Below the pieces are notes generated by a model. That model was not told the DNA's origin. It saw only the letters and a list, made by a program, of their open reading frames with translations, and ran no database searches. The position numbers and the translations under genes are program-made. Of a DNA stretch of 63,689 nucleotides, positions 38,759 through 48,875 are shown one piece after another. The DNA is from Clostridia bacterium (GTDB lineage: Bacteria > Bacillota > Clostridia > TANB77 > CAG-508): NCBI GenBank assembly GCA_017511265.1, contig JAFWKV010000022.1:1-63689 (forward strand), written 5' to 3'. Positions within the stretch are counted from its first letter, which is position 1. Each line of letters opens with the position of its first letter.

Positions 38759-39120
38759 ATGAACAATACATTATATAGTATAGCAGGAATTTTAATACCT
38801 TTTTTAGGTACAACTTTTGGTAGTGGATTTGTATTATTTTTAAAAAAGAACTTGAATGGAAAAATACAAAAGTTAATTGTTGGATTTGCGGCAGGTGTTA
38901 TGATAGCTGCAAGTATATGGTCATTAATACTTCCATCTGCAGAGCTTGCAGAAGAACAAGGAGTTGTGGGATGGCTACCACCAGCTATTGGATTTATATT
39001 AGGAATAGTGTTTTTGATTATAACAAATTATATTGCAGATAAAATTGCAAAAAGAAAAAGCGGAAAAAAACTTAATATGCTTATGTTTTCGGTTACACTA
39101 CATAACATTCCAGAAGGAAT
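38759..39120 (+). pseudogene. ZIP (ZupT/GufA-like) metal transporter, 5' part, interrupted by integrative element
   Basis: GFAAGVMIAASIWSLI, TLHNIPEG; similarity stops at 39120. Confidence 0.92.
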
Positions 39121-39557
39121 TGCCCTAATTAGAGTGAAGCCAGTTTTTGCAAGGCTTTGAGGTGCTATAAGGAATTGCCCAAATTAGAGTGTAAATTGAA
39201 ATTGCTTGGAAAATAGTTTGGATTTACAAAAAGGACATGTAATGGAAAATACAAAACATAAAAACTTATACTGCAGTCTATGTTTTTAGAGACGAAAATG
39301 CTGAATTGGATGAGTGAAATCCAAAATTTGGAGGCTTTAACACATCCAAAATGGCATTTTTTTTATACTTTTGTTTTGGAGGTTTTAGTAGCATTCAAAA
39401 TACTAAAAAATAAACAAAAGCTCAAAAAACATTGTTTCTTGTTTAAAGGATAAGATACAACAAAAGAAAAAGCAGTGCAAAAAGTACATATTTTTATGTA
39501 TATTACCGGAATTTACTTTTATATTTAAGGGGTGAATACAAATTTTTGTAAAAAACA

Positions 39558-39586
39558 TTGACATAATACAAATCACATGATATTAT
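39558..39586 (+). promoter_or_regulatory. SigA promoter with extended -10 driving precursor peptide
   Basis: TTGACA-N17 (with TG)-TATTAT. Confidence 0.7.
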
Positions 39587-39621
39587 AAGAGCGTAAAATC
39601 TTAGTAAGGAGGAAACTTATT

Positions 39622-39702
39622 ATGAGAGAAAACGATAACGAAAACCAAAATGAACTTGAAGAAATCACATCTGTAAGCTGCGGAACATGTGATATTAATT
39701 AA
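39622..39702 (+). CDS. putative RiPP precursor peptide, 26 aa MRENDNENQNELEEITSVSCGTCDIN
   Basis: AAGGAGG SD, promoter upstream, hairpin downstream, acidic leader + CxxC core; first gene of rSAM cluster; below ORF-track cutoff. Confidence 0.8.
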   Translation: MRENDNENQNELEEITSVSCGTCDIN

Positions 39703-39708
39703 TTATGG

Positions 39709-39754
39709 AGATACCTATAATTTTGATGTTTAAATTATAGGTATCTAATTTTTT
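39709..39754 (+). terminator. hairpin/attenuating terminator after precursor gene
   Basis: agatacctataattt-8nt-aaattataggtatct followed by a T-run. Confidence 0.75.
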
Positions 39755-39764
39755 AGGATGGTAA

Positions 39765-40349
39765 ATGTATATGAATATTATACTAAATTTAGATAATTTA
39801 CTAAAAAGTGATGAAACGAACCAATTAATTTCTGTAAAAATTCTAATAACTCATAATAAAATTTCATCAGAGTATAAAGGAATTTTCAAATCAACAGATA
39901 TAAATTTAAAGACAGATATTGAATTTGCTGAAAATGAAAAATACAGTATAGTTTTTAGCATAGTTATTTTAGGAAAGCAAATTGTTAAAGAAAAATATTC
40001 TTTTGTTTATAAAGAAAACCTAAGCTATCAAATTAAAGATGGAAAAATAAATCTTAAAATTATGAATAAAAATATGGAAAACAGTATAAAACCAATTTTT
40101 AATATAACTTATAGAACATATAATAATTATAATTTTAAAATTAATCCACTAGCAATTATTAGAAAAGAAGATGATAATAAAGAAACCATTTTTTTTAGTG
40201 ATAATGTTTATATTATAAGAGACAAGCTCATGGAAATAATTAATAAAATACATTATAATAATAAATTTAAAGAAGACATTGAAAAATATAAAAAAATTGA
40301 ATCAATCAATTTATTAATATCGAAAGGGTGCATTATTTGTTATGAATAG
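39765..40349 (+). CDS. hypothetical protein, C-terminus possibly RRE/PqqD-like
   Basis: Overlaps next gene; C-terminal strand-strand-strand/helix pattern ending LLISKGCI resembles RRE folds (inference). Confidence 0.6.
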   Translation: MYMNIILNLDNLLKSDETNQLISVKILITHNKISSEYKGIFKSTDINLKTDIEFAENEKYSIVFSIVILGKQIVKEKYSFVYKENLSYQIKDGKINLKIMNKNMENSIKPIFNITYRTYNNYNFKINPLAIIRKEDDNKETIFFSDNVYIIRDKLMEIINKIHYNNKFKEDIEKYKKIESINLLISKGCIICYE

Positions 40350-41346
40350 TGATTTGATTATAAATACTTCAAATTATCCATTTTCTGTAGGATGGGCAAT
40401 TACTAATAAATGTAATCTACATTGTATACATTGTAATATGAATAGCGGAAGTGCATTAGAAAATGAGTTAACAAAAGAAGAATGCTTTAGAATTATTGAT
40501 GAATTAAGTTTTAACAATGTTCAAAAAATTTGCTTTTTTGGAGGAGAGCCTTTAGTAAGAAATGATTTTTTTGAAATAGCAAATTATGCAGGAAAAAAAG
40601 GAATATTTGTAAGCTTTACAACAAATGGATTATTAATTGATGAAAATATGATTGATAATGAATTATATAAATTTGAACTTATAAGAGTTAGTTTAGATGG
40701 ACCAACGCCAGAAACACATGAGTTTATTAGAAATTTAAAAGGTTGCTTTGATATAACAGTAAATAATGTAAAAAAAATGACAGAAAAAGGTATTAGTGTT
40801 GGGATAGTTACTTGTATTTCACATAAAAATATAAATTATATTGAAGAAATGATTAGCTTTTTAGAAACTTTAAAAATAAAAAGATGGTTTATACCTATAT
40901 TATCTGCTGCTGGGAGAGGAAGCAATATTGAAAAAGAAATTCTTACTCCAGAAGAGGTAAAACAATTGTTAATAAAACTTGAAAAAATAGCTATAGATAT
41001 AGACTTTTCGATAAACTTAGATTTACCATATTCAACATTACTAAAGGATAAAAATAATAAAATAAAAGCTTCTTGCCCAGCTGCTACAACAGAATTAGCT
41101 ATTTTTGCCAATGGAGATGTTTCACCATGTTGTGAAATTCCTATAATGGGGGGAAATTTAAGGACAAAATCTATATCTGAAATTTGGAATAAAAGTAAAG
41201 TGTTTGTAGACTTCAGAAATAGAAATTTAATAAAGGGTAAGTGCAAAAATTGTAAATATATTAAAAATTGTGGTGGATGCAGAGCAAATGCATACATAAA
41301 ATACGGAGACTATATGCAGGGAGATGATGTATGTTGGAAAGAATAA
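40342..41346 (+). CDS. radical SAM/SPASM domain protein 1
   Basis: CNLHCIHC, GGEPL, TTNG, SLDG; SPASM CPAA..GDVSPC..CKNC...CGGCRA..C. Confidence 0.95.
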   Translation: MNSDLIINTSNYPFSVGWAITNKCNLHCIHCNMNSGSALENELTKEECFRIIDELSFNNVQKICFFGGEPLVRNDFFEIANYAGKKGIFVSFTTNGLLIDENMIDNELYKFELIRVSLDGPTPETHEFIRNLKGCFDITVNNVKKMTEKGISVGIVTCISHKNINYIEEMISFLETLKIKRWFIPILSAAGRGSNIEKEILTPEEVKQLLIKLEKIAIDIDFSINLDLPYSTLLKDKNNKIKASCPAATTELAIFANGDVSPCCEIPIMGGNLRTKSISEIWNKSKVFVDFRNRNLIKGKCKNCKYIKNCGGCRANAYIKYGDYMQGDDVCWKE

Positions 41347-41546
41347 ATATTGAAGAATACAGATTTAGAGAAGAAGGAGAGAATTTATTATTAGCTTTTA
41401 ATGTTATAACATCAGAAATGTTCTTTTTAAAAGGCAAAAGCAAAGACTATATTATTTCATTGTTAAATAACAGCAAATACGATGGAAAAATCAATAGAAA
41501 AAATCTTGAAATGTTAAAAGACAAAAAAATAATCTTAGGAGGATAA
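41331..41546 (+). CDS. small PqqD/RRE-like peptide-binding protein
   Basis: 71 aa, FREEG..LLAFNVITSEMFFL...LKDKKII pattern; wedged between rSAM genes. Confidence 0.6.
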   Translation: MLERINIEEYRFREEGENLLLAFNVITSEMFFLKGKSKDYIISLLNNSKYDGKINRKNLEMLKDKKIILGG

Positions 41547-41548
41547 AA

Positions 41549-42547
41549 ATGGAGTACAAGAATATGAATGTTACGATTGATGTAACTTCAAGATGTAATT
41601 TAAGATGTAAACATTGTAGGGTTAATGAAATTGAATATGATATGACATTAGATGAAATTGAACAAGTTTTTAAAAAGCTAAATAATTTTAAACCTAGAGG
41701 TGTATTCATAAGTGGTGGTGAACCATTAATTAGAGATGATATAGCTGAAATTGTAAAAAAATCAAAAAAATTAGCTCCAGTTACAGTTTTAAATACAAAT
41801 TCATTGCTATTAACAGAGAATAAACTAAAAGAATTAATTGATGCAGGACTGAATTATATTCAAGTTAGTTTAGATGGTATTGAGGAATTACATGATTATA
41901 TTAGAGGAAATGGAACATATAGAGAAACTATATCAAAAATGAAAATGATAAATAAATATTCTGGACAAATAAATTTGCATATTAGCAGTGTTGTATCACT
42001 AAAAAATATAGATTTTATGGAAGAATTTGCTCGACAAATTCTTGAAGTTGAAAAAATAAATGTGCAAATTTTAGGTTTTAAACGCTTTATACCTAATAAT
42101 GTGCTAAGAGATAGTGCATCATTAGGAAAAGATGGACTAAAGAAATTGTATCAAAACCTTGAATTACTGCAAGAAAAATATGAAGGAAAAACAATAATTG
42201 CATCAGATATGCCAATGAAGAATGTTTTTAATGAAAAAAAAGCGCATGAAATTATGGAAAAATATAATTTAGATTGTGTAGGGTGTTCTGCTGGAGTAAA
42301 TGGAATAAGTATTAGAAATGATGGAACTGTAACTCCTTGTACATTGTTATATATATCATGTGGAAATATATTAAAACAAAATTTAGATAAAATAATGCAG
42401 AATGCAGACATGATTAAAATAAAAGAACGTGAATTAAAAGGTAGATGCGGAAAGTGTAAATATAAGCAGCTTTGTGGTGGCTGCAGAGCTGCTGCATATC
42501 AAATATCAGGAGATTTTTTAGAAGAGGATTCGGAGTGTTTTATATGA
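41549..42547 (+). CDS. radical SAM/SPASM domain protein 2
   Basis: CNLRCKHC, SGGEPL, NTNS, SLDG; CSAG...GTVTPC...CGKC...CGGCRA..C. Confidence 0.95.
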   Translation: MEYKNMNVTIDVTSRCNLRCKHCRVNEIEYDMTLDEIEQVFKKLNNFKPRGVFISGGEPLIRDDIAEIVKKSKKLAPVTVLNTNSLLLTENKLKELIDAGLNYIQVSLDGIEELHDYIRGNGTYRETISKMKMINKYSGQINLHISSVVSLKNIDFMEEFARQILEVEKINVQILGFKRFIPNNVLRDSASLGKDGLKKLYQNLELLQEKYEGKTIIASDMPMKNVFNEKKAHEIMEKYNLDCVGCSAGVNGISIRNDGTVTPCTLLYISCGNILKQNLDKIMQNADMIKIKERELKGRCGKCKYKQLCGGCRAAAYQISGDFLEEDSECFI

Positions 42548-43491
42548 TAGAATTAAGTGCACCAATTTCTGTAGTTTGGGAAATTACAAATAATTGCAAT
42601 TATAAATGCCCTCATTGCAGAGCATATCAAGAATATAATAAAGAAAATAAGAAAATAGAAGATAGTATTATTAAGGATTTGATAGATTCCAAAGTTATGT
42701 TTGTTAACTTGTCCGGAGGTGAGCCTCTATTAAATCCAAGAATCTTTGAAATAGCAAAAAAATTATATAGTAACAATATATATATTGCATTATCAACTAA
42801 TGGATCACTTTACTCAAAATATAGAGAAAAAATTGTCAATTCGGGAATAAAACTTATACAAGTATCTTTGGATGGTAAGAAAGAATTGCATGAAAAATTT
42901 AGAGGGATAGAAGGATCATATGAAAAAGCTATAGAAGCATTAAAAATGGCTAAAGAGGATGGATTAAGAACTCAAATGAATGTTACGATTACATCAAGTA
43001 ATATTAATGATTTAAAATGGAATTATGAAAAAGCAAAAGAATTACATATTGATAAAGTATTTTATAGAAGAGTTGTACCATACGGCAAAGCTAAAATAAA
43101 TAAATATGTTTTACCTGAAAAAAGATTATACTATGATAAAATAAAAGAATTGTCTGAACTTGATTGCGAAGATTTAAATGTATCAATAGATGATCCTATC
43201 TTAAATGTCTTAAATAACAAAGAAAACATAGAGTATATTGCGTGTGGCGCAGGGATTAATAATTTAGGAATATCAAGCGAAGGAGACATATATCCTTGCA
43301 TTTTTTTAAGAGAAAGATTAGGAAATATAAAAACAGAGAAATTAAAGGATATTTGGAATAATAGTGATATTTTAAAAAAATTAAGAAATAGAGATATAGA
43401 AAAATGCGGAGAATGTGAATATAAGTATAGTTGTGGTGGTTGTCGAGCTTTTTCTGGAATTAATAAAAAAGACGAGTTTTGTCCGCTTTAA
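42544..43491 (+). CDS. radical SAM/SPASM domain protein 3
   Basis: ATGA overlap; CNYKCPHC, SGGEPL, STNG, SLDG; CGAG...GDIYPC...CGEC...CGGCRA..C. Confidence 0.95.
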   Translation: MIELSAPISVVWEITNNCNYKCPHCRAYQEYNKENKKIEDSIIKDLIDSKVMFVNLSGGEPLLNPRIFEIAKKLYSNNIYIALSTNGSLYSKYREKIVNSGIKLIQVSLDGKKELHEKFRGIEGSYEKAIEALKMAKEDGLRTQMNVTITSSNINDLKWNYEKAKELHIDKVFYRRVVPYGKAKINKYVLPEKRLYYDKIKELSELDCEDLNVSIDDPILNVLNNKENIEYIACGAGINNLGISSEGDIYPCIFLRERLGNIKTEKLKDIWNNSDILKKLRNRDIEKCGECEYKYSCGGCRAFSGINKKDEFCPL

Positions 43492-43510
43492 TTTATGGAG
43501 GTTATAGAAA

Positions 43511-44020
43511 ATGTCAATTTATCCTAAAAATATTAGTAATGGTGAAAATGTAATAATTCATTTAAGATTTTCTAATAAAAGCAAAATAATCCAAAAGATT
43601 AGATATGTACTATCTGTTATAGATCCTGATGAAAATCAAGTGTTTTTAAAGGAAGATAATTTAGTTTTGGGTGTAGAAAAAGAGGAATTTGTAAAACAAT
43701 TATATTATTCTTTAGAAATAGATGGAAATTTTAAACCAGGAAAATATATTGTACAGTTTTATCTTGTTTGTAAGGGACATATTATAGAGTCAGTTACTAA
43801 AGATAATGATTTCTTTTTTGTAGAGAAACTTGAGTACTATTACTCCAATGAAAAAACAGTTATAACAAATATTTCTAATGAAAAAATTAAATTTAAATTG
43901 CATGAAGGATTAAATATAGAAGAATTAACAATTAATGGTAAAGAAAAAATTGAATTAGAAGGAAAATATGATTATATTGAATATGCAAATAATAAAATTG
44001 ATTTAATAGAAGAAAAGTAG
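43511..44020 (+). CDS. hypothetical beta-rich protein in rSAM cluster
   Basis: GGAGG SD; alternating strand pattern, PGKYIVQ; no family recognised. Confidence 0.7.
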   Translation: MSIYPKNISNGENVIIHLRFSNKSKIIQKIRYVLSVIDPDENQVFLKEDNLVLGVEKEEFVKQLYYSLEIDGNFKPGKYIVQFYLVCKGHIIESVTKDNDFFFVEKLEYYYSNEKTVITNISNEKIKFKLHEGLNIEELTINGKEKIELEGKYDYIEYANNKIDLIEEK

Positions 44021-44059
44021 AAATTTAGTTAAATTTTAATTTTTAAGGGAGATAAAAAT

Positions 44060-44884
44060 ATGCTTATTGATTCACATATTCATCTTGGAAACAAAAAAGA
44101 ATGTGAAGAGATTATTAATAATTCAAGATATAAAAATAAATATAAAATATACTCTTGCATTAATCCTAAGACAATTGATGGAACAGATATTTTTTTAAGA
44201 GATGTTGATGGTTTTTTCGCAATTCCATTGTTTTTCTGTGAGACTGATATAGAAAAAGCAAATACAGAGTTGATTAATCGTGTAGAAAACGATTCTAGGG
44301 CAATACCTATTTTATTAATGTGTAAAAATGAAAATTTAAATAATTTAATTTTTTTATTAAATTATAATATACTTAAAGAACATTTTACATTACACAATCC
44401 TCATGATATTTCAGATAGAAATGAAACATATGATTATTTAAATAGTAAAGGTGGATTTTTATTATTACATACATTGTCAAGTAGTACATATCAACATGTT
44501 ATTACTTTGCGAAAGCAATATCCAAAAATGAAAATAATTGTTGCACATTTAGGCAGAGATGGAAAATGTGATTACGATTTTACAACTGATATGATTGATA
44601 AATTACATTCTGATGAAAATATTTATACTGATATATCAACTATTCAAAATCCTAAATTGATAAGGTATGCATTTAAAAGGTTTGGAAGTTCGAGAATTCT
44701 ATATGGATCTGATTTTCCATTTGAAAGAACTCCCGGTATAAAAGAAGAAGACTATATTCAACCTGCTATAAAAGCGAATTTAAAAGGCTATGAATATGAT
44801 GACTTATTTTATAGAAATGCAGAAGAAATTATAAGAACAGCTTATATAGAAAAAGGGAGGGATAAGGATGGAATGGAACATTGA
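44060..44884 (+). CDS. metal-dependent amidohydrolase (TIM barrel, Amidohydro_2-like)
   Basis: IDSHIH, LLH, VAHLG, YGSDFP. Confidence 0.9.
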   Translation: MLIDSHIHLGNKKECEEIINNSRYKNKYKIYSCINPKTIDGTDIFLRDVDGFFAIPLFFCETDIEKANTELINRVENDSRAIPILLMCKNENLNNLIFLLNYNILKEHFTLHNPHDISDRNETYDYLNSKGGFLLLHTLSSSTYQHVITLRKQYPKMKIIVAHLGRDGKCDYDFTTDMIDKLHSDENIYTDISTIQNPKLIRYAFKRFGSSRILYGSDFPFERTPGIKEEDYIQPAIKANLKGYEYDDLFYRNAEEIIRTAYIEKGRDKDGMEH

Positions 44885-45371
44885 AAAAAGTAAAAAGGAG
44901 GATTGTAAATTAATTGTAGAGTTTATAACAAAAGTATGGAGCGAAACTTATAGAGGCATTATAAATGATAATTTCCTTGATAGTTTAAAGCAGACAGAAG
45001 AAGATAGATATATTAATGCAATTAATAAATTTGATGAAAAAAATAATATGGAATATATAATAAAGGAAAATAATGAAATAATTGCTTTCTCAAAATTAGC
45101 TAAAACAAACGATATGCACGGAAAAAATATAGAGTTACAATCACTTTATGTTTTAAAGGAATATCAAAACAGAGGAATAGGAAAAAAATTAATACAAAAT
45201 GCTTTTAAAAAAGCAAAAAAGTTAGGATACAAAAAAATTATAGTAGGATGTTTAGAGAATAATAAATCAAATGATTTCTATAAGAAAATCAATGGAAAAT
45301 ATATTGGCAAAAGAGAATTTAAGTTGCCAAATCAAACTTTATACGAGAATGTATATGAATATAATATATAA
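44868..45371 (+). CDS. GNAT family N-acetyltransferase
   Basis: LYVLKEYQNRGIGKKLI acetyl-CoA motif, N..FYKK. Confidence 0.92.
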   Translation: MEWNIEKSKKEDCKLIVEFITKVWSETYRGIINDNFLDSLKQTEEDRYINAINKFDEKNNMEYIIKENNEIIAFSKLAKTNDMHGKNIELQSLYVLKEYQNRGIGKKLIQNAFKKAKKLGYKKIIVGCLENNKSNDFYKKINGKYIGKREFKLPNQTLYENVYEYNI

Positions 45372-45401
45372 ATATAAAAGTATTATTGGAGGAAAATTAA
45401 G

Positions 45402-46319
45402 TTGTCTAATTTATTTAGAGTTGCTTTGTTACAATTAAATAGAACAAATAATGAGCAAGATTCTTTAATAAAAGGAGTAGAGTACTGCAGAAAAGCAAAA
45501 ACATTAGGTGCTGATATTGCTGTATTTCCTGAATCATGGAATAATGGTTATGAAATGTTATTTGAAGGTTTTGCTAAGAAAAATATGAATGTTTCAAAAG
45601 ATACTTTTGATAAATGGAGAGGTAAAGCAATTGATGAAAACAGTACTTATATAAATACTTTTAGAAGTTTAGCCAAAGAATTAGATATGGCTATTGCAAT
45701 TACATTTCTGGAAAAAGGCAATTATTTACCTAAAAATAGTGTCATTATTATTGATAGGTTTGGTAATAAGGTTTTAAAATATTCTAAGGTACATACAGTT
45801 GATTTAAAAATGGAAATGTTTGTAGAGCCAGGAAAAGAATTTAAAGTTTGTGATTTGAATTATAAAAATGGTATTATTAAATTGGGCACAATGATCTGCT
45901 TTGATAGAGCTTTTCCTGAAAGTGCAAGAATTCTAATGATAAAAGGTGCTGAAATAATATTAGTTCCAAATGCTAGTGTACTAACCAAAATTAGATTAAA
46001 TCAGTTGAAAGTAAGAGCTTACGAAAATGTAACTGGAATAGTAACTGTAAATTATGCTAATTATGGTGGTAAGTCGTCTGCTTTTAGTCCTATAGTTAAA
46101 GATGATGAACTTAATGATGTTAATAGTGAATTATTGATTATGGATTATAAAGAAAAAATAGAAGTGGTTGATTTTAATATGGATGAAATAAGAGAATATA
46201 GAAGCAGAGAGCCTCTTGGTGATGCATATAGAAAACCTTATGCATATAAAGAAATATTAAGCAAAGAAGCAAAAGAACCATTTATAAGAGATGATTCAAG
46301 AAGAAATTATTTCAATTAA
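45402..46319 (+). CDS. carbon-nitrogen hydrolase (nitrilase superfamily)
   Basis: VFPE, YSKVH, ICFD catalytic Glu-Lys-Cys triad. Confidence 0.93.
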   Translation: MSNLFRVALLQLNRTNNEQDSLIKGVEYCRKAKTLGADIAVFPESWNNGYEMLFEGFAKKNMNVSKDTFDKWRGKAIDENSTYINTFRSLAKELDMAIAITFLEKGNYLPKNSVIIIDRFGNKVLKYSKVHTVDLKMEMFVEPGKEFKVCDLNYKNGIIKLGTMICFDRAFPESARILMIKGAEIILVPNASVLTKIRLNQLKVRAYENVTGIVTVNYANYGGKSSAFSPIVKDDELNDVNSELLIMDYKEKIEVVDFNMDEIREYRSREPLGDAYRKPYAYKEILSKEAKEPFIRDDSRRNYFN

Positions 46320-46320
46320 G

Positions 46321-46356
46321 TTTTAGGATATACTGTAAACAGTATATCCTAAAAAA
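46321..46356 (+). terminator. terminator ending the cargo operon
   Basis: ttttaggatatactgt-aa-acagtatatcctaaaa. Confidence 0.75.
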
Positions 46357-46675
46357 TGTACCTAATGTTAGAGAATTCTTCATCAAAATATATAATTGAT
46401 ATCCAACTATTATATTTTTATGCCAAAATCTGCCTAAATAAAAAAGTCAAGTATGCAAAATTACCTTGTGTTCTTGATTTTTTTATTATCATAAGTGATA
46501 GTGCAAAATTAAAAAATGTAAAAAAGTTTGAAACTATGAAAAAAAGTTTTTTTAAAATAAGGGGGGGACAAAATTGACTTTTGTGAGCAATTAAGTGAGG
46601 GAGATAAAATATACAATTGGATAGTAATATTTATGTAACTATAAAATATATATCAAATAGGAAGGCAGGTTTTTT

Positions 46676-46783
46676 ATGGAGAATGAATTCAAAATTAATG
46701 TGTTTTTTTGCAATGATGGTGAAAAATTAGAAAAACTATTGGCAGATTACTTGTTTTCTGTTATTAAGACAAAGATTAAATAA
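46676..46783 (+). CDS. putative 35-aa protein upstream of recombinase
   Basis: GGAAGG/AGGT SD-like then MENEFKINVFFCNDGEKLEKLLADYLFSVIKTKIK. Confidence 0.4.
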   Translation: MENEFKINVFFCNDGEKLEKLLADYLFSVIKTKIK

Positions 46784-46895
46784 TATTTATGCTTAAAAAT
46801 TTGAATTTATGATAAAACAATTGATATTTTAATAAAGAAAAGTTATAACAACATTATGAATTCAAATTATTTTTTCAAGCATGGAAGGAGGAAAA

Positions 46896-48464
46896 ATGCT
46901 TGAAGAAATTATTAGAAAAACATATAAAATAGCCATATATATAAGACTATCAAAAGAAGATGAAGATAGAGGATACGATGAAAGTGAAAGCATAACAAAC
47001 CAAAAAACATTATTATTAGAATACGTTGAAAAACTTGGACCCAATTATGAACTTGTTGATGTTTATACTGATCCAGGATATACAGGAACAAATTTTAATA
47101 GACCAGATTTTAAAAGAATGATAAATGATATTAATTTAGGAAAAGTAAATATGGTCATCACAAAGGACTTATCTCGTTTAGGACGTGATTACATAGAAAC
47201 AGGAGAATACATTGAAAAATGGTTTCCAGAAAATAATATAAGGTATGTTTCTGTAACAGATGGAATTGACACGTTTTCAGAAAATAATGGAAACAACGAT
47301 ATAGCACCTTTTAAGTCAATTCTAAATGATATGTATTCTAAAGACTTATCTAAAAAAATAAAAACTGCTTTACATACTATGCAAGCTCAAGGCAAGTGGG
47401 TAGGGGCTAAAACCCCATTAGGTTATATAAAAGATCCTAATGACAAAAATAAACTTATAATTTGTGAAGAAGAGAGCAAAATTGTAAAAATAATTTTTGA
47501 TATGGCTTATTCTGGAAAGAATATAGGTAAAATTAAAAATTATCTAAATGATAATAATGTTCCTACTGCATATCAGTTAAGATATAACAAATTTACATAT
47601 TGGAATAGTAAAACAATAAAAAGAATGTTAACTAATCCTGTATATAAAGGAGTTACAGTTCAAAACAAAATGAGTAGAATAAGCTATAAAAATAGAAAAA
47701 TTCGTCCTAATCCCGAAGAACAATGGTTTATAGTAGAAAATACACATGAGCCAATTATAGAACCTTCAAAATTTGATAGCATACAAAAAATGAGGATAGC
47801 TCAAAACTATGGTAGAGCAGAAAAGAAAAACTACTTTTTATTAGAGGGATTAATGATTTGCTATGAGTGTAAACATAAAATTGGAGTAAAAAAAGATAGA
47901 AATACTTGGGAAATGATGTGTAATAATTATCGCAGATTTTCAAAACTAAAAGTTTGTACTGCTCATGGATTTAGTTATATAAAATTTGAAGAGTTGATTC
48001 TAAGATACTTAAAGAAAATTTTTGAAAATATTGATAATGATAAAATTGAATCAAGTATTAAAAATAGCAAATCCTCAATAGATTATACTAAAATGCAAGA
48101 AAAAATAAAAAAAGATATAGTCGTGATGAATGGCAATATTGATAAAATGTATATGGATAAGCTTAATAATAAAATAACTGAAGAAATGTATGAAAGATTA
48201 TATAACAAGATACAGAGAGGTATAAAACTAAAAGAAAAAGAATATTTAGACTTAGAAAAAACAAAAAACAATTCATTAAAAGACAAAGATGAAGATATAA
48301 AAAAATTAGTTAAGGAATATCTTTCACTAGAAAAACCAAAGCCAGAACTAATGAAACTACTTATTAATAGAATTGAAATACATCAAGACAAGCAGATAGA
48401 TATATATTTTAATTTTAAAAAATTAAATGAACTTAAGGAAAATTACACTCTAAATCAGACATAA
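46896..48464 (+). CDS. large serine recombinase (resolvase + recombinase + Zn ribbon + coiled coil)
   Basis: AIYIRLS catalytic Ser, KDLSRLGRDY, GLMICYEC; stop codon abuts attR. Confidence 0.95.
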   Translation: MLEEIIRKTYKIAIYIRLSKEDEDRGYDESESITNQKTLLLEYVEKLGPNYELVDVYTDPGYTGTNFNRPDFKRMINDINLGKVNMVITKDLSRLGRDYIETGEYIEKWFPENNIRYVSVTDGIDTFSENNGNNDIAPFKSILNDMYSKDLSKKIKTALHTMQAQGKWVGAKTPLGYIKDPNDKNKLIICEEESKIVKIIFDMAYSGKNIGKIKNYLNDNNVPTAYQLRYNKFTYWNSKTIKRMLTNPVYKGVTVQNKMSRISYKNRKIRPNPEEQWFIVENTHEPIIEPSKFDSIQKMRIAQNYGRAEKKNYFLLEGLMICYECKHKIGVKKDRNTWEMMCNNYRRFSKLKVCTAHGFSYIKFEELILRYLKKIFENIDNDKIESSIKNSKSSIDYTKMQEKIKKDIVVMNGNIDKMYMDKLNNKITEEMYERLYNKIQRGIKLKEKEYLDLEKTKNNSLKDKDEDIKKLVKEYLSLEKPKPELMKLLINRIEIHQDKQIDIYFNFKKLNELKENYTLNQT

Positions 48465-48473
48465 CCAGAAGGA

Positions 48474-48875
48474 ATGGCAGTAGGTGTATGTTTTGCTGGA
48501 TTTTTATCAGGAAATACAGGAATAACATTAATGTCAGCAATGGCATTATCAATTGGAATAGGACTCCAAAATATACCAGAAGGAGCAATTATTTCTATAC
48601 CTCTAAAATTACAAGGAATGAATAAAGGAAGAGCGTTATTATATGGGATTTTGTCAGGGATAGTTGAACCAATTGCAGCATTTATTACAATATTATTGTT
48701 AAATATTGTAGTACCACTATTACCTTATTTATTATCATTTGCAGCAGGTGCAATGATTTATGTAGTAGTAGAAGAACTAGTTCCAGAAATGCACGAAAAA
48801 AACAAATCAATTTTAGGCGTAGTAGGTGTAACGATAGGATTTGTTGTTATGATGGTTATGGATATGGCACTGTAA
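48474..48875 (+). pseudogene. ZIP metal transporter, 3' part
   Basis: (PEG)MAVGV...IGLQNIPEGAII...FAAGAMIYVVVEELVPE; in frame with the 5' part after excision. Confidence 0.92.

Follow-up and report, generated by a model that had tools for sequence, protein, structure and literature searches.

Radical S-adenosylmethionine (rSAM) enzymes with a SPASM domain are at present the chief source of novel peptide chemistry, and several described systems use them on the short precursor of a peptide that is made by the ribosome and modified after translation (RiPP). In ranthipeptides (PapB/PapA of freyrasin, QhpD/QhpC, NxxcB, and CteB/SCIFF), a SPASM enzyme acts on a short, cysteine-containing precursor; the PapB type is cross-linked at a CX3D motif, and clusters of the SCIFF type have neither exporter nor protease. 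Mycofactocin (MftA/B/C/E) combines modification at the C-terminal end of a short precursor with a discrete small partner, a SPASM enzyme and a downstream hydrolase, again without an exporter, and pyrroloquinoline quinone (PQQ; PqqA/D/E) starts from a precursor of 22-26 aa, with a stand-alone small partner encoded between or next to the SPASM rSAM genes. More than one SPASM enzyme per cluster is known from the sactipeptides thuricin CD (TrnC/TrnD) and ruminococcin C (RumMC1/MC2) of gut or soil Firmicutes. Each of these traits has an observed or predicted counterpart in the locus analyzed here, a gene cassette at positions 39558-46356 of a 63,689-nucleotide stretch (the window; contig JAFWKV010000022.1, forward strand, of assembly GCA_017511265.1) from a Clostridia bacterium of the GTDB lineage TANB77; CAG-508. 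We consider it likely that this is a working cassette for a RiPP of an undescribed family, with a tiny and nearly invariant peptide as the most likely substrate for cross-linking by three rSAM enzymes. Full-text literature searches, including searches with core-peptide strings, found no paper on this system.

The cassette consists of the following features, all on the + strand; positions are those of the whole window throughout.

39558..39586, + strand: sigma-70-type promoter, TTGACA-17-TATTAT with an upstream TG (extended -10), 11/12 match
39622..39702, + strand: precursor peptide gene, 26 aa, MRENDNENQNELEEITSVSCGTCDIN, with an acidic leader containing ELEEI and a putative core, SVSCGTCDIN, ending at the stop codon
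39709..39746, + strand: 15-bp stem-loop followed by a T-run, 3' of the precursor gene, z = -4.0
39771..40349, + strand: ORF194, 192 aa from the ATG at 39771, alternative start at 39765, no Pfam match
40342..41346, + strand: rSAM1, Radical SAM/SPASM by Pfam, with AhbD as best curated match (206 bits, cut-off 500)
41331..41546, + strand: ORF71, small stand-alone protein, a paralogue of the ORF194 C-terminal domain
41549..42547, + strand: rSAM2, Radical SAM/SPASM by Pfam
42544..43491, + strand: rSAM3, Radical SAM/SPASM by Pfam, its ATG overlapping the rSAM2 stop codon
43511..44020, + strand: ORF169, two tandem Ig/FnIII-like beta-sandwich domains without a catalytic motif
44060..44884, + strand: Amidohydro_2 (PF04909), metal-dependent TIM-barrel hydrolase, HxH...H...H...D intact
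44868..45371, + strand: GNAT acetyltransferase (PF00583), acetyl-CoA motif QNRGIGKKL
45402..46319, + strand: CN_hydrolase, nitrilase superfamily (PF00795), specific to the window
46321..46354, + strand: 15-bp hairpin at the operon end, z = -7.0, no U-tract after it

All of these genes are intact and densely packed, with overlaps of 4-17 nt at four junctions. Every feature lies where a preliminary description, made from the sequence alone, had placed it, and the reading as one tightly overlapping operon is confirmed. The same description had the operon end in a terminator; a strong hairpin is there, but it is not followed by a U-tract, so the label of terminator is only partly supported. The G+C content of the region is about 26-28%. 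None of the cluster genes contains an in-frame CGG codon, and the CGG frame-break issue of this genome therefore does not affect the cluster.

Homologous cassettes were collected from species-representative genomes (L001-L003, L042), from a genome of the same genus (G230/L033) and from metagenome contigs (L012-L022, L035, L041) reached via homologues of ORF194, ORF71 and the amidohydrolase; a profile search of genome contigs with an rSAM2 alignment recovered mainly archaeal TIGR04053-like enzymes, the only useful match being L042. At least ten loci besides this one have the same gene order and peptide, more than chance would give, and the order persists across nine or more distinct genomic settings. 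A small open reading frame (ORF) occupies the same place in each homologous cassette, and 12 sequences share the pattern ...LEE[IV]xx[V]xCxxCDxN-stop. Across these 12 loci, one Leu, two Glu, one Val, two Cys, one Asp and one Asn are invariant, as is the CX3D spacing (Cys20...Asp24), and D-x-N always stands at the extreme C-terminus. The precursors are 22-26 aa long, with an N-terminal part variable in both length and sequence, and residue 25 alternates among I, V, T, S and C. Codons differ synonymously at all of these invariant residues save a single Glu, and the cassette proteins themselves retain 33-87% identity. Finally, a stem-loop follows the precursor stop codon in 11/11 of the three-rSAM loci folded, with stem sequences that are unrelated between clades.

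Taken together, the invariant motif, the synonymous codons, the diverged partner proteins and the recurrent hairpin point to a precursor that combines a leader motif with a core under constraint. On this sequence pattern, the 26-aa ORF is a real gene under purifying selection, and its product appears to be a precursor. The locus had been described as an unrecognised RiPP-like cluster, and that view is upheld by the conserved precursor and by the finding that no cassette gene reaches the cut-off of any curated family. The precursor gene is predicted to be strongly expressed. Its promoter is the best sigma-70-like match within 38.6-49.0 kb, with a comparable TTGACA...TATTAT promoter in cassette L012, and an AAGGAGG (39606-39612) lies 9 nt ahead of the ATG at 39622. 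The hairpin at 39709-39746 probably acts as a partial terminator or as an mRNA-stabilising element.

The three rSAM enzymes all carry Radical_SAM and SPASM domains (Pfam) and are paralogues, 31-32% identical to one another, each with CX3CX2C, GGEPL and seven conserved SPASM cysteines. Their radical-SAM domains start at residue 12-20, so none has a fused RiPP recognition element (RRE), in agreement with the earlier reading of three stand-alone SPASM enzymes that lack an N-terminal RRE. The closest solved structures to rSAM1 are PqqE and SkfB, PqqE being the closest of all. Scores against models of known peptide maturases were low. For PapB (NF047865, cut-off 340 bits), rSAM1, rSAM2 and rSAM3 reached 80.3, 73.8 and 102.7 bits; for the sactisynthases, the scores against cut-offs were 144/625 for StsB, 84/300 for SkfB and 81/850 for AlbA, again with no N-terminal RRE. 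Similarly, the enzymes scored 142, 79 and 118 bits against MftC (TIGR03962, cut-off 265), with a peptide that ends in Asp-x-Asn, not Val-Tyr, and 100-111 bits against PqqE (TIGR02109, cut-off 381), with no PqqB or PqqC genes in the operon. The best score against AhbD, NirJ and NirJ2 (cut-offs 500-515 bits) was 206, and there were no other Ahb or Nir genes nearby. These sub-cut-off matches and the lack of tetrapyrrole genes indicate that the enzymes do not match a characterised heme-type pathway; such a match would, by the terms of the preliminary description, have spoken against its reading.

Compared with ranthipeptide clusters, the cassette has three stand-alone rSAM enzymes instead of one, no fused RRE and only two cysteines in 22-26 aa, and its partners ORF194, ORF71, ORF169 and Amidohydro_2 are unknown there. 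It is also distinct from SCIFF systems, which have a peptide of about 45 aa with six cysteines and ScfB as the single maturase, whereas two cysteines in 22-26 aa and three maturases are found here. Unlike mycofactocin, whose MftE belongs to the creatininase family, the cassette encodes a PF04909 hydrolase, lacks the Val-Tyr motif, MftD, MftF and linked dehydrogenases, and has a patchy, mobile distribution. Relative to PQQ, it lacks the Glu/Tyr pair, PqqB and PqqC, and ORF71 has no PF05402 match. The multi-rSAM sactipeptide clusters encode two fused-RRE enzymes, Cys-rich cores of 30-50 aa, and dedicated exporters and proteases, in contrast to the three compact enzymes and the core of about 10 aa seen here. 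The distinguishing traits of the cassette are three compact SPASM paralogues predicted to act on one core of about ten residues, novel partner domains and a PF04909-GNAT module.

Two of the partner proteins, ORF194 and ORF71, form small families restricted to these cassettes and have no Pfam, NCBIfam or PDB sequence match. The AlphaFold model of ORF194 (predicted local distance difference test, pLDDT, 93) places a beta-sandwich at the N-terminus (residues 1-100) and a C-terminal domain of three strands followed by three helices (strands 131-152, helices 153-186, then a final strand). ORF71 aligns to ORF194 residues 131-194 (hhalign probability 85%, E 6.6e-6, with a 28-sequence ORF71 profile), so the cassette contains two paralogous copies of one three-strand/three-helix domain. 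This modeled arrangement has the topology of RREs, and an RRE-like role is plausible; ORF71 is a candidate leader-binding protein. The preliminary description had spoken of RRE-like proteins, with a PqqD-like ORF71; the mutual homology and the modeled topology fit that proposal, but neither protein matched PqqD significantly, and six ORF71 members gave no match to PF05402. The third protein, ORF169, is modeled (pLDDT 86) as two tandem Ig/FnIII-like sandwiches resembling RbmA and transglutaminase C-terminal barrels, and is probably a non-catalytic scaffold. Searches with PDB profiles gave nothing useful for ORF71, ORF194 or ORF169. In other clades, ORF169 homologues carry a 68-aa C-terminal extension that was considered as a third RRE and rejected, as its hhalign comparisons with ORF71 and ORF194 were not significant.

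Every complete variant of the cassette contains the peptide, an ORF194-like protein, rSAM1, an ORF71-like protein, rSAM2, rSAM3 and Amidohydro_2. ORF169-like proteins are usually present (missing in L035 and L041), and GNAT is found in most cassettes (missing in L035, L041 and L042, the last truncated by an insertion sequence). The most conserved proteins are the rSAM enzymes (64-87% identity, rSAM2 leading with 70-87%) and the amidohydrolase (54-82%), and the least conserved are ORF194 and ORF71 (33-71%). Accessory genes differ among loci. A PepF-like M3B oligopeptidase with an HExxH motif is inserted in the L019-L021 clade (PDB 3ce2, 8.6e-22; TIGR00181, 1.9e-28), which fits peptide processing; L035 adds a methyltransferase, a Lactamase_B protein and a permease, and L041 a fourth, RRE-bearing rSAM enzyme. 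Directly upstream of the L042 cassette lie genes for a major facilitator superfamily (MFS) transporter and an RRNPP-like regulator (HTH/RNPP_C-like), a hint of export. In the window, the cassette has no exporter, no C39 peptidase and no obvious immunity gene, bearing out the preliminary description on this point. Loci from Melainabacteria (L004-L006) were considered as the same system and rejected, having a single rSAM enzyme and a PqqD protein.

Amidohydro_2, a component of every complete cassette, retains its metal ligands (HxH...H...H...D). Solved structures among its relatives are limited to PF04909 hydrolases that are uncharacterised and to decarboxylases of aromatic acids. Most members of PF04909 act as decarboxylases, hydratases or lactonases. 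In RiPP maturation, the bottromycin amidohydrolase (BotAH/PurAH) offers a precedent for a peptidase of the amidohydrolase superfamily with a metal-dependent TIM barrel; it belongs to a different Pfam family and to a YcaO pathway rather than an rSAM one. Two more distant loci pair the hydrolase with GNAT. One (L034, 7404-10501) is a minimal, three-gene operon with a peptide, MKKVNTKKTVKKVVVVKDSCSTCGSWD, ending in ...KDSCSTCGSWD, one SPASM rSAM enzyme, an Amidohydro_2 protein (36% identity) and GNAT. The other (L036, 839-4173) encodes a helix-turn-helix protein, a SPASM rSAM enzyme, a PqqD protein (PF05402, 1.5e-8), a 40-aa peptide ending in ...WCFGCTNCNCN and a single Amidohydro_2::GNAT fusion, after which comes an asparaginyl-tRNA synthetase (AsnRS)-like catalytic core without the anticodon-binding domain, translationally coupled to the fusion. 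This fusion and the repeated co-occurrence indicate that both enzymes work together on Cys-rich rSAM peptides; their role would be peptide maturation or producer protection. The L034 operon lies just downstream of a tRNA gene.

The last two genes of the operon, GNAT and CN_hydrolase, had been suggested as possible unrelated cargo. This applies to CN_hydrolase, which no other cassette has and which 25 genomes of the same genus also lack, and whose closest relative (75% identical) is in a gut Bacilli metagenome-assembled genome (L123, 141-4763), beside a large serine recombinase-like gene and without a cassette. CN_hydrolase is independent mobile cargo appended to the operon, and it seems to circulate on mobile elements; GNAT, present in most cassettes and fused in L036, is not unrelated cargo.

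From this gene content we infer the chemistry and the role of the cassette, which probably represents a new family of rSAM RiPPs with thioether cross-links. ORF71 and the C-terminal domain of ORF194 would bind the leader through the LEE motif, in the manner of discrete RREs, and present the core to the rSAM enzymes, each of which would install one modification. Thioether rings are the most likely fate of both invariant cysteines: Cys20 would join Asp24 on the CX3D spacing, and Cys23 may be linked to the C-terminal Asn26. As precedent for CX3D, PapB is reported to form Cys-Asp thioethers (PMC9413430). The third enzyme would catalyse a different reaction, for example epimerisation or an ether or C-C link. 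Amidohydro_2 could then act on the modified peptide, either releasing the leader or carrying out some other hydrolysis or a decarboxylation, and GNAT could acetylate the product or detoxify it. Rather than a housekeeping cofactor, the product would be a secreted signal or antimicrobial of accessory nature.

Several observations weigh against this proposal. The modification chemistry is itself read from sequence; no rSAM enzyme reached a curated cut-off, and the best matches were AhbD, NirJ2 and TIGR04053, not peptide maturases. With two cysteines for three enzymes, at least one reaction cannot be a thioether. Comparisons of ORF71 and ORF194 with PqqD were not significant in Pfam, in PDB profiles or in hhalign with bona fide and weak PqqD sets, and a Foldseek search with the whole ORF194 model gave no RRE match, only weak C2/Ig-like ones. 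The cassette in the window comes without an exporter or a protease, PepF went undetected in the 86%-complete genome, and we know of no peptidase among PF04909 enzymes. Finally, cores this close to invariant are seen more typically in cofactors or signals than in bacteriocins.

The last point leads to the main alternative, proposed in the preliminary description, in which the peptide is a scaffold on which the rSAM enzymes build an intracellular small molecule, excised by Amidohydro_2 and tailored by GNAT, as in mycofactocin or PQQ. A very short precursor (22-26 aa), whose nearly invariant core runs right to the C-terminus, would suit such a product, as would a hydrolase as conserved as the rSAM enzymes and the lack of exporter, immunity gene and protease in most cassettes. 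The host genomes, moreover, are very small (1.1-1.4 Mb), with housekeeping genes around several of the copies. However, a profile of ORF194 found the cassette in only 1/151 genomes sampled from the family and 2/401 from the order, an occurrence that argues against a housekeeping cofactor, and in the window the island that carries it is mobile. Linked dehydrogenases or other partners that would use a cofactor are missing, the precursor has neither the Val-Tyr motif of MftA nor the Glu/Tyr motif of PqqA, scores for MftC and PqqE stay far under the cut-offs, and L042 and L035 add the transporter with its RRNPP-like regulator and the permease, respectively. The cofactor proposal is thus not supported; it survives as an unlikely explanation on account of the invariant core and because most copies lack an exporter. 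Overall, the cassette is a rare, horizontally moving accessory trait. A product that is not a RiPP at all would require the small ORF to be an attenuation leader peptide and the rSAM enzymes to act on a non-peptide substrate, for example a tetrapyrrole-like one. The best curated matches (AhbD, NirJ2, TIGR04053) and the terminator-like hairpin immediately after the small ORF would be expected in that case, yet those matches are 2-3 fold under their cut-offs, other Ahb or Nir genes are missing, and an attenuator needs only regulatory codons, so that LEE and six core residues invariant across lineages are much harder to reconcile with it. The PepF-like peptidase of one clade, and distant Amidohydro_2/GNAT relatives whose neighbours are a genuine PqqD protein and Cys-rich peptides, also speak for a peptide product, and we regard the attenuation account as extremely improbable.

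A different kind of peptide product would resemble microcin C, with the C-terminal Asp-x-Asn turned into a warhead that targets an aminoacyl-tRNA synthetase (aaRS) and with GNAT and the amidohydrolase as self-immunity analogous to MccE and MccF. The invariant C-terminal Asn and the dispensability of GNAT in some variants would be in keeping with this, together with the genes around the cassettes. A threonyl-tRNA synthetase (ThrRS) gene, thrS, lies beside three differently arranged cassette types, namely downstream in L016 (10876-12834), upstream in L041 (2-1354), and between amidohydrolase and GNAT in L019-L021, where proS is also adjacent (aaRS genes at 10855-12591 in L019 and at 14423-16165 in L020); ileS adjoins L012 (6842-9610) and asnA L035 (3982-4950), and the AsnRS-like core is coupled to the fusion in L036. 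Against this, none of the cassettes encodes an MccB/ThiF-like adenylyltransferase, those of the window, G230 and L001/L022 have no aaRS neighbour, and the synthetases differ between loci (Ile, Thr, Pro). The amidohydrolase, for its part, is found throughout and in many cases overlaps the gene before it, as an enzyme of biosynthesis would be expected to do. In the one checkable genome (L003/L019 clade), the cassette-adjacent ThrRS is the only copy, giving no evidence for a resistant second one, and no T-box was detected, which leaves the explanation as a resistance gene unsupported; self-resistance through the aaRS was accordingly rejected. We judge the microcin-C-like account very unlikely.

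Regarding the synthetases themselves, aaRS or aaRS-like genes border related cassettes far more often than expected, and the linkage may be ancestral synteny or may have functional meaning. A correspondence between precursor residue 25 and the type of neighbouring aaRS was considered and rejected, as none was found. In the genome that carries L001, a contig (G002 contig C17, 14204-17119; L023, L027) has a full-length thrS (652 aa) directly followed by an N-terminally truncated ThrRS-like ORF of 394 aa that covers model positions 172-564.

Returning to the RiPP of an undescribed family, a more far-reaching version can be formulated, which we consider quite unlikely as a whole. It would be a new RiPP class in reduced-genome gut Firmicutes, in which three compact SPASM enzymes and a new discrete leader-binding domain densely cross-link V-x-C-x-x-C-D-x-N with at least one non-thioether bond, a PF04909 step new to peptide natural products follows, and the aaRS tie is functional, for example through a Trojan-horse inhibitor with GNAT and hydrolase immunity. 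If the linkage were indeed functional, it would suggest a possible new antibacterial mode of action. Independent of this, the cassette is a promising place to look for novel peptide chemistry: the three uncharacterised paralogues would share one defined substrate of about ten residues, so that each reaction can be assigned by co-expression and mass spectrometry. The cassette also supplies two protein families without annotation (ORF194/ORF71 and ORF169) and a recurrent Amidohydro_2-GNAT module, fused in one relative. Its producers are uncultured small-genome gut Clostridia, the host genome itself being very small (1.13 Mb at 86% completeness; relatives 1.2-2.4 Mb), and the minimal integrative island in the window shows how such organisms exchange specialised metabolism.

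The island is bounded by the following features.

39110..39120, no strand: attL core, 11-bp direct repeat CCAGAAGGAAT inside a ZIP gene that reads HN[IL]PEGMAVGV without interruption in relatives
46881..48464, + strand: large serine recombinase with Resolvase, Recombinase and Zn_ribbon_recom domains, abutting the right island end
48466..48476, no strand: attR core, second copy of CCAGAAGGAAT, followed by the C-terminal half of the ZIP gene

The gene for this ZIP (ZupT-like) transporter is split at HNIPEG|MAVGV into halves at 38759-39160 and 48474-48875, and genomes of the same genus have it uninterrupted (263-271 aa). The split gene, the direct repeats and the recombinase, together with the intact gene in relatives, indicate that the cassette is the main cargo of a 9.35-kb integrative island. 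Eight or more further settings of the cassette lack a recombinase. A second, intact ZIP paralogue is present in this genome (contig C39, 44204-44599).

Between the operon-end hairpin and the recombinase gene, about 500 bp (46356-46880) contain only short ORFs (73 aa and 35 aa) without a family match, which could encode a recombination directionality factor or be pseudogene debris. At the left island end, and just within it, lie two copies of a 23-bp direct repeat, AAGGAATTGCCC[T/A]AATTAGAGTG (39113-39136 and 39168-39191), 55 bp apart. The AATTAGAGTG part of the repeat stands in inverted orientation to CACTCTAAAT, which is found close to the right island end (48447-48456). These sequences are possible recombinase-binding sites or a possible remnant of a second att site.

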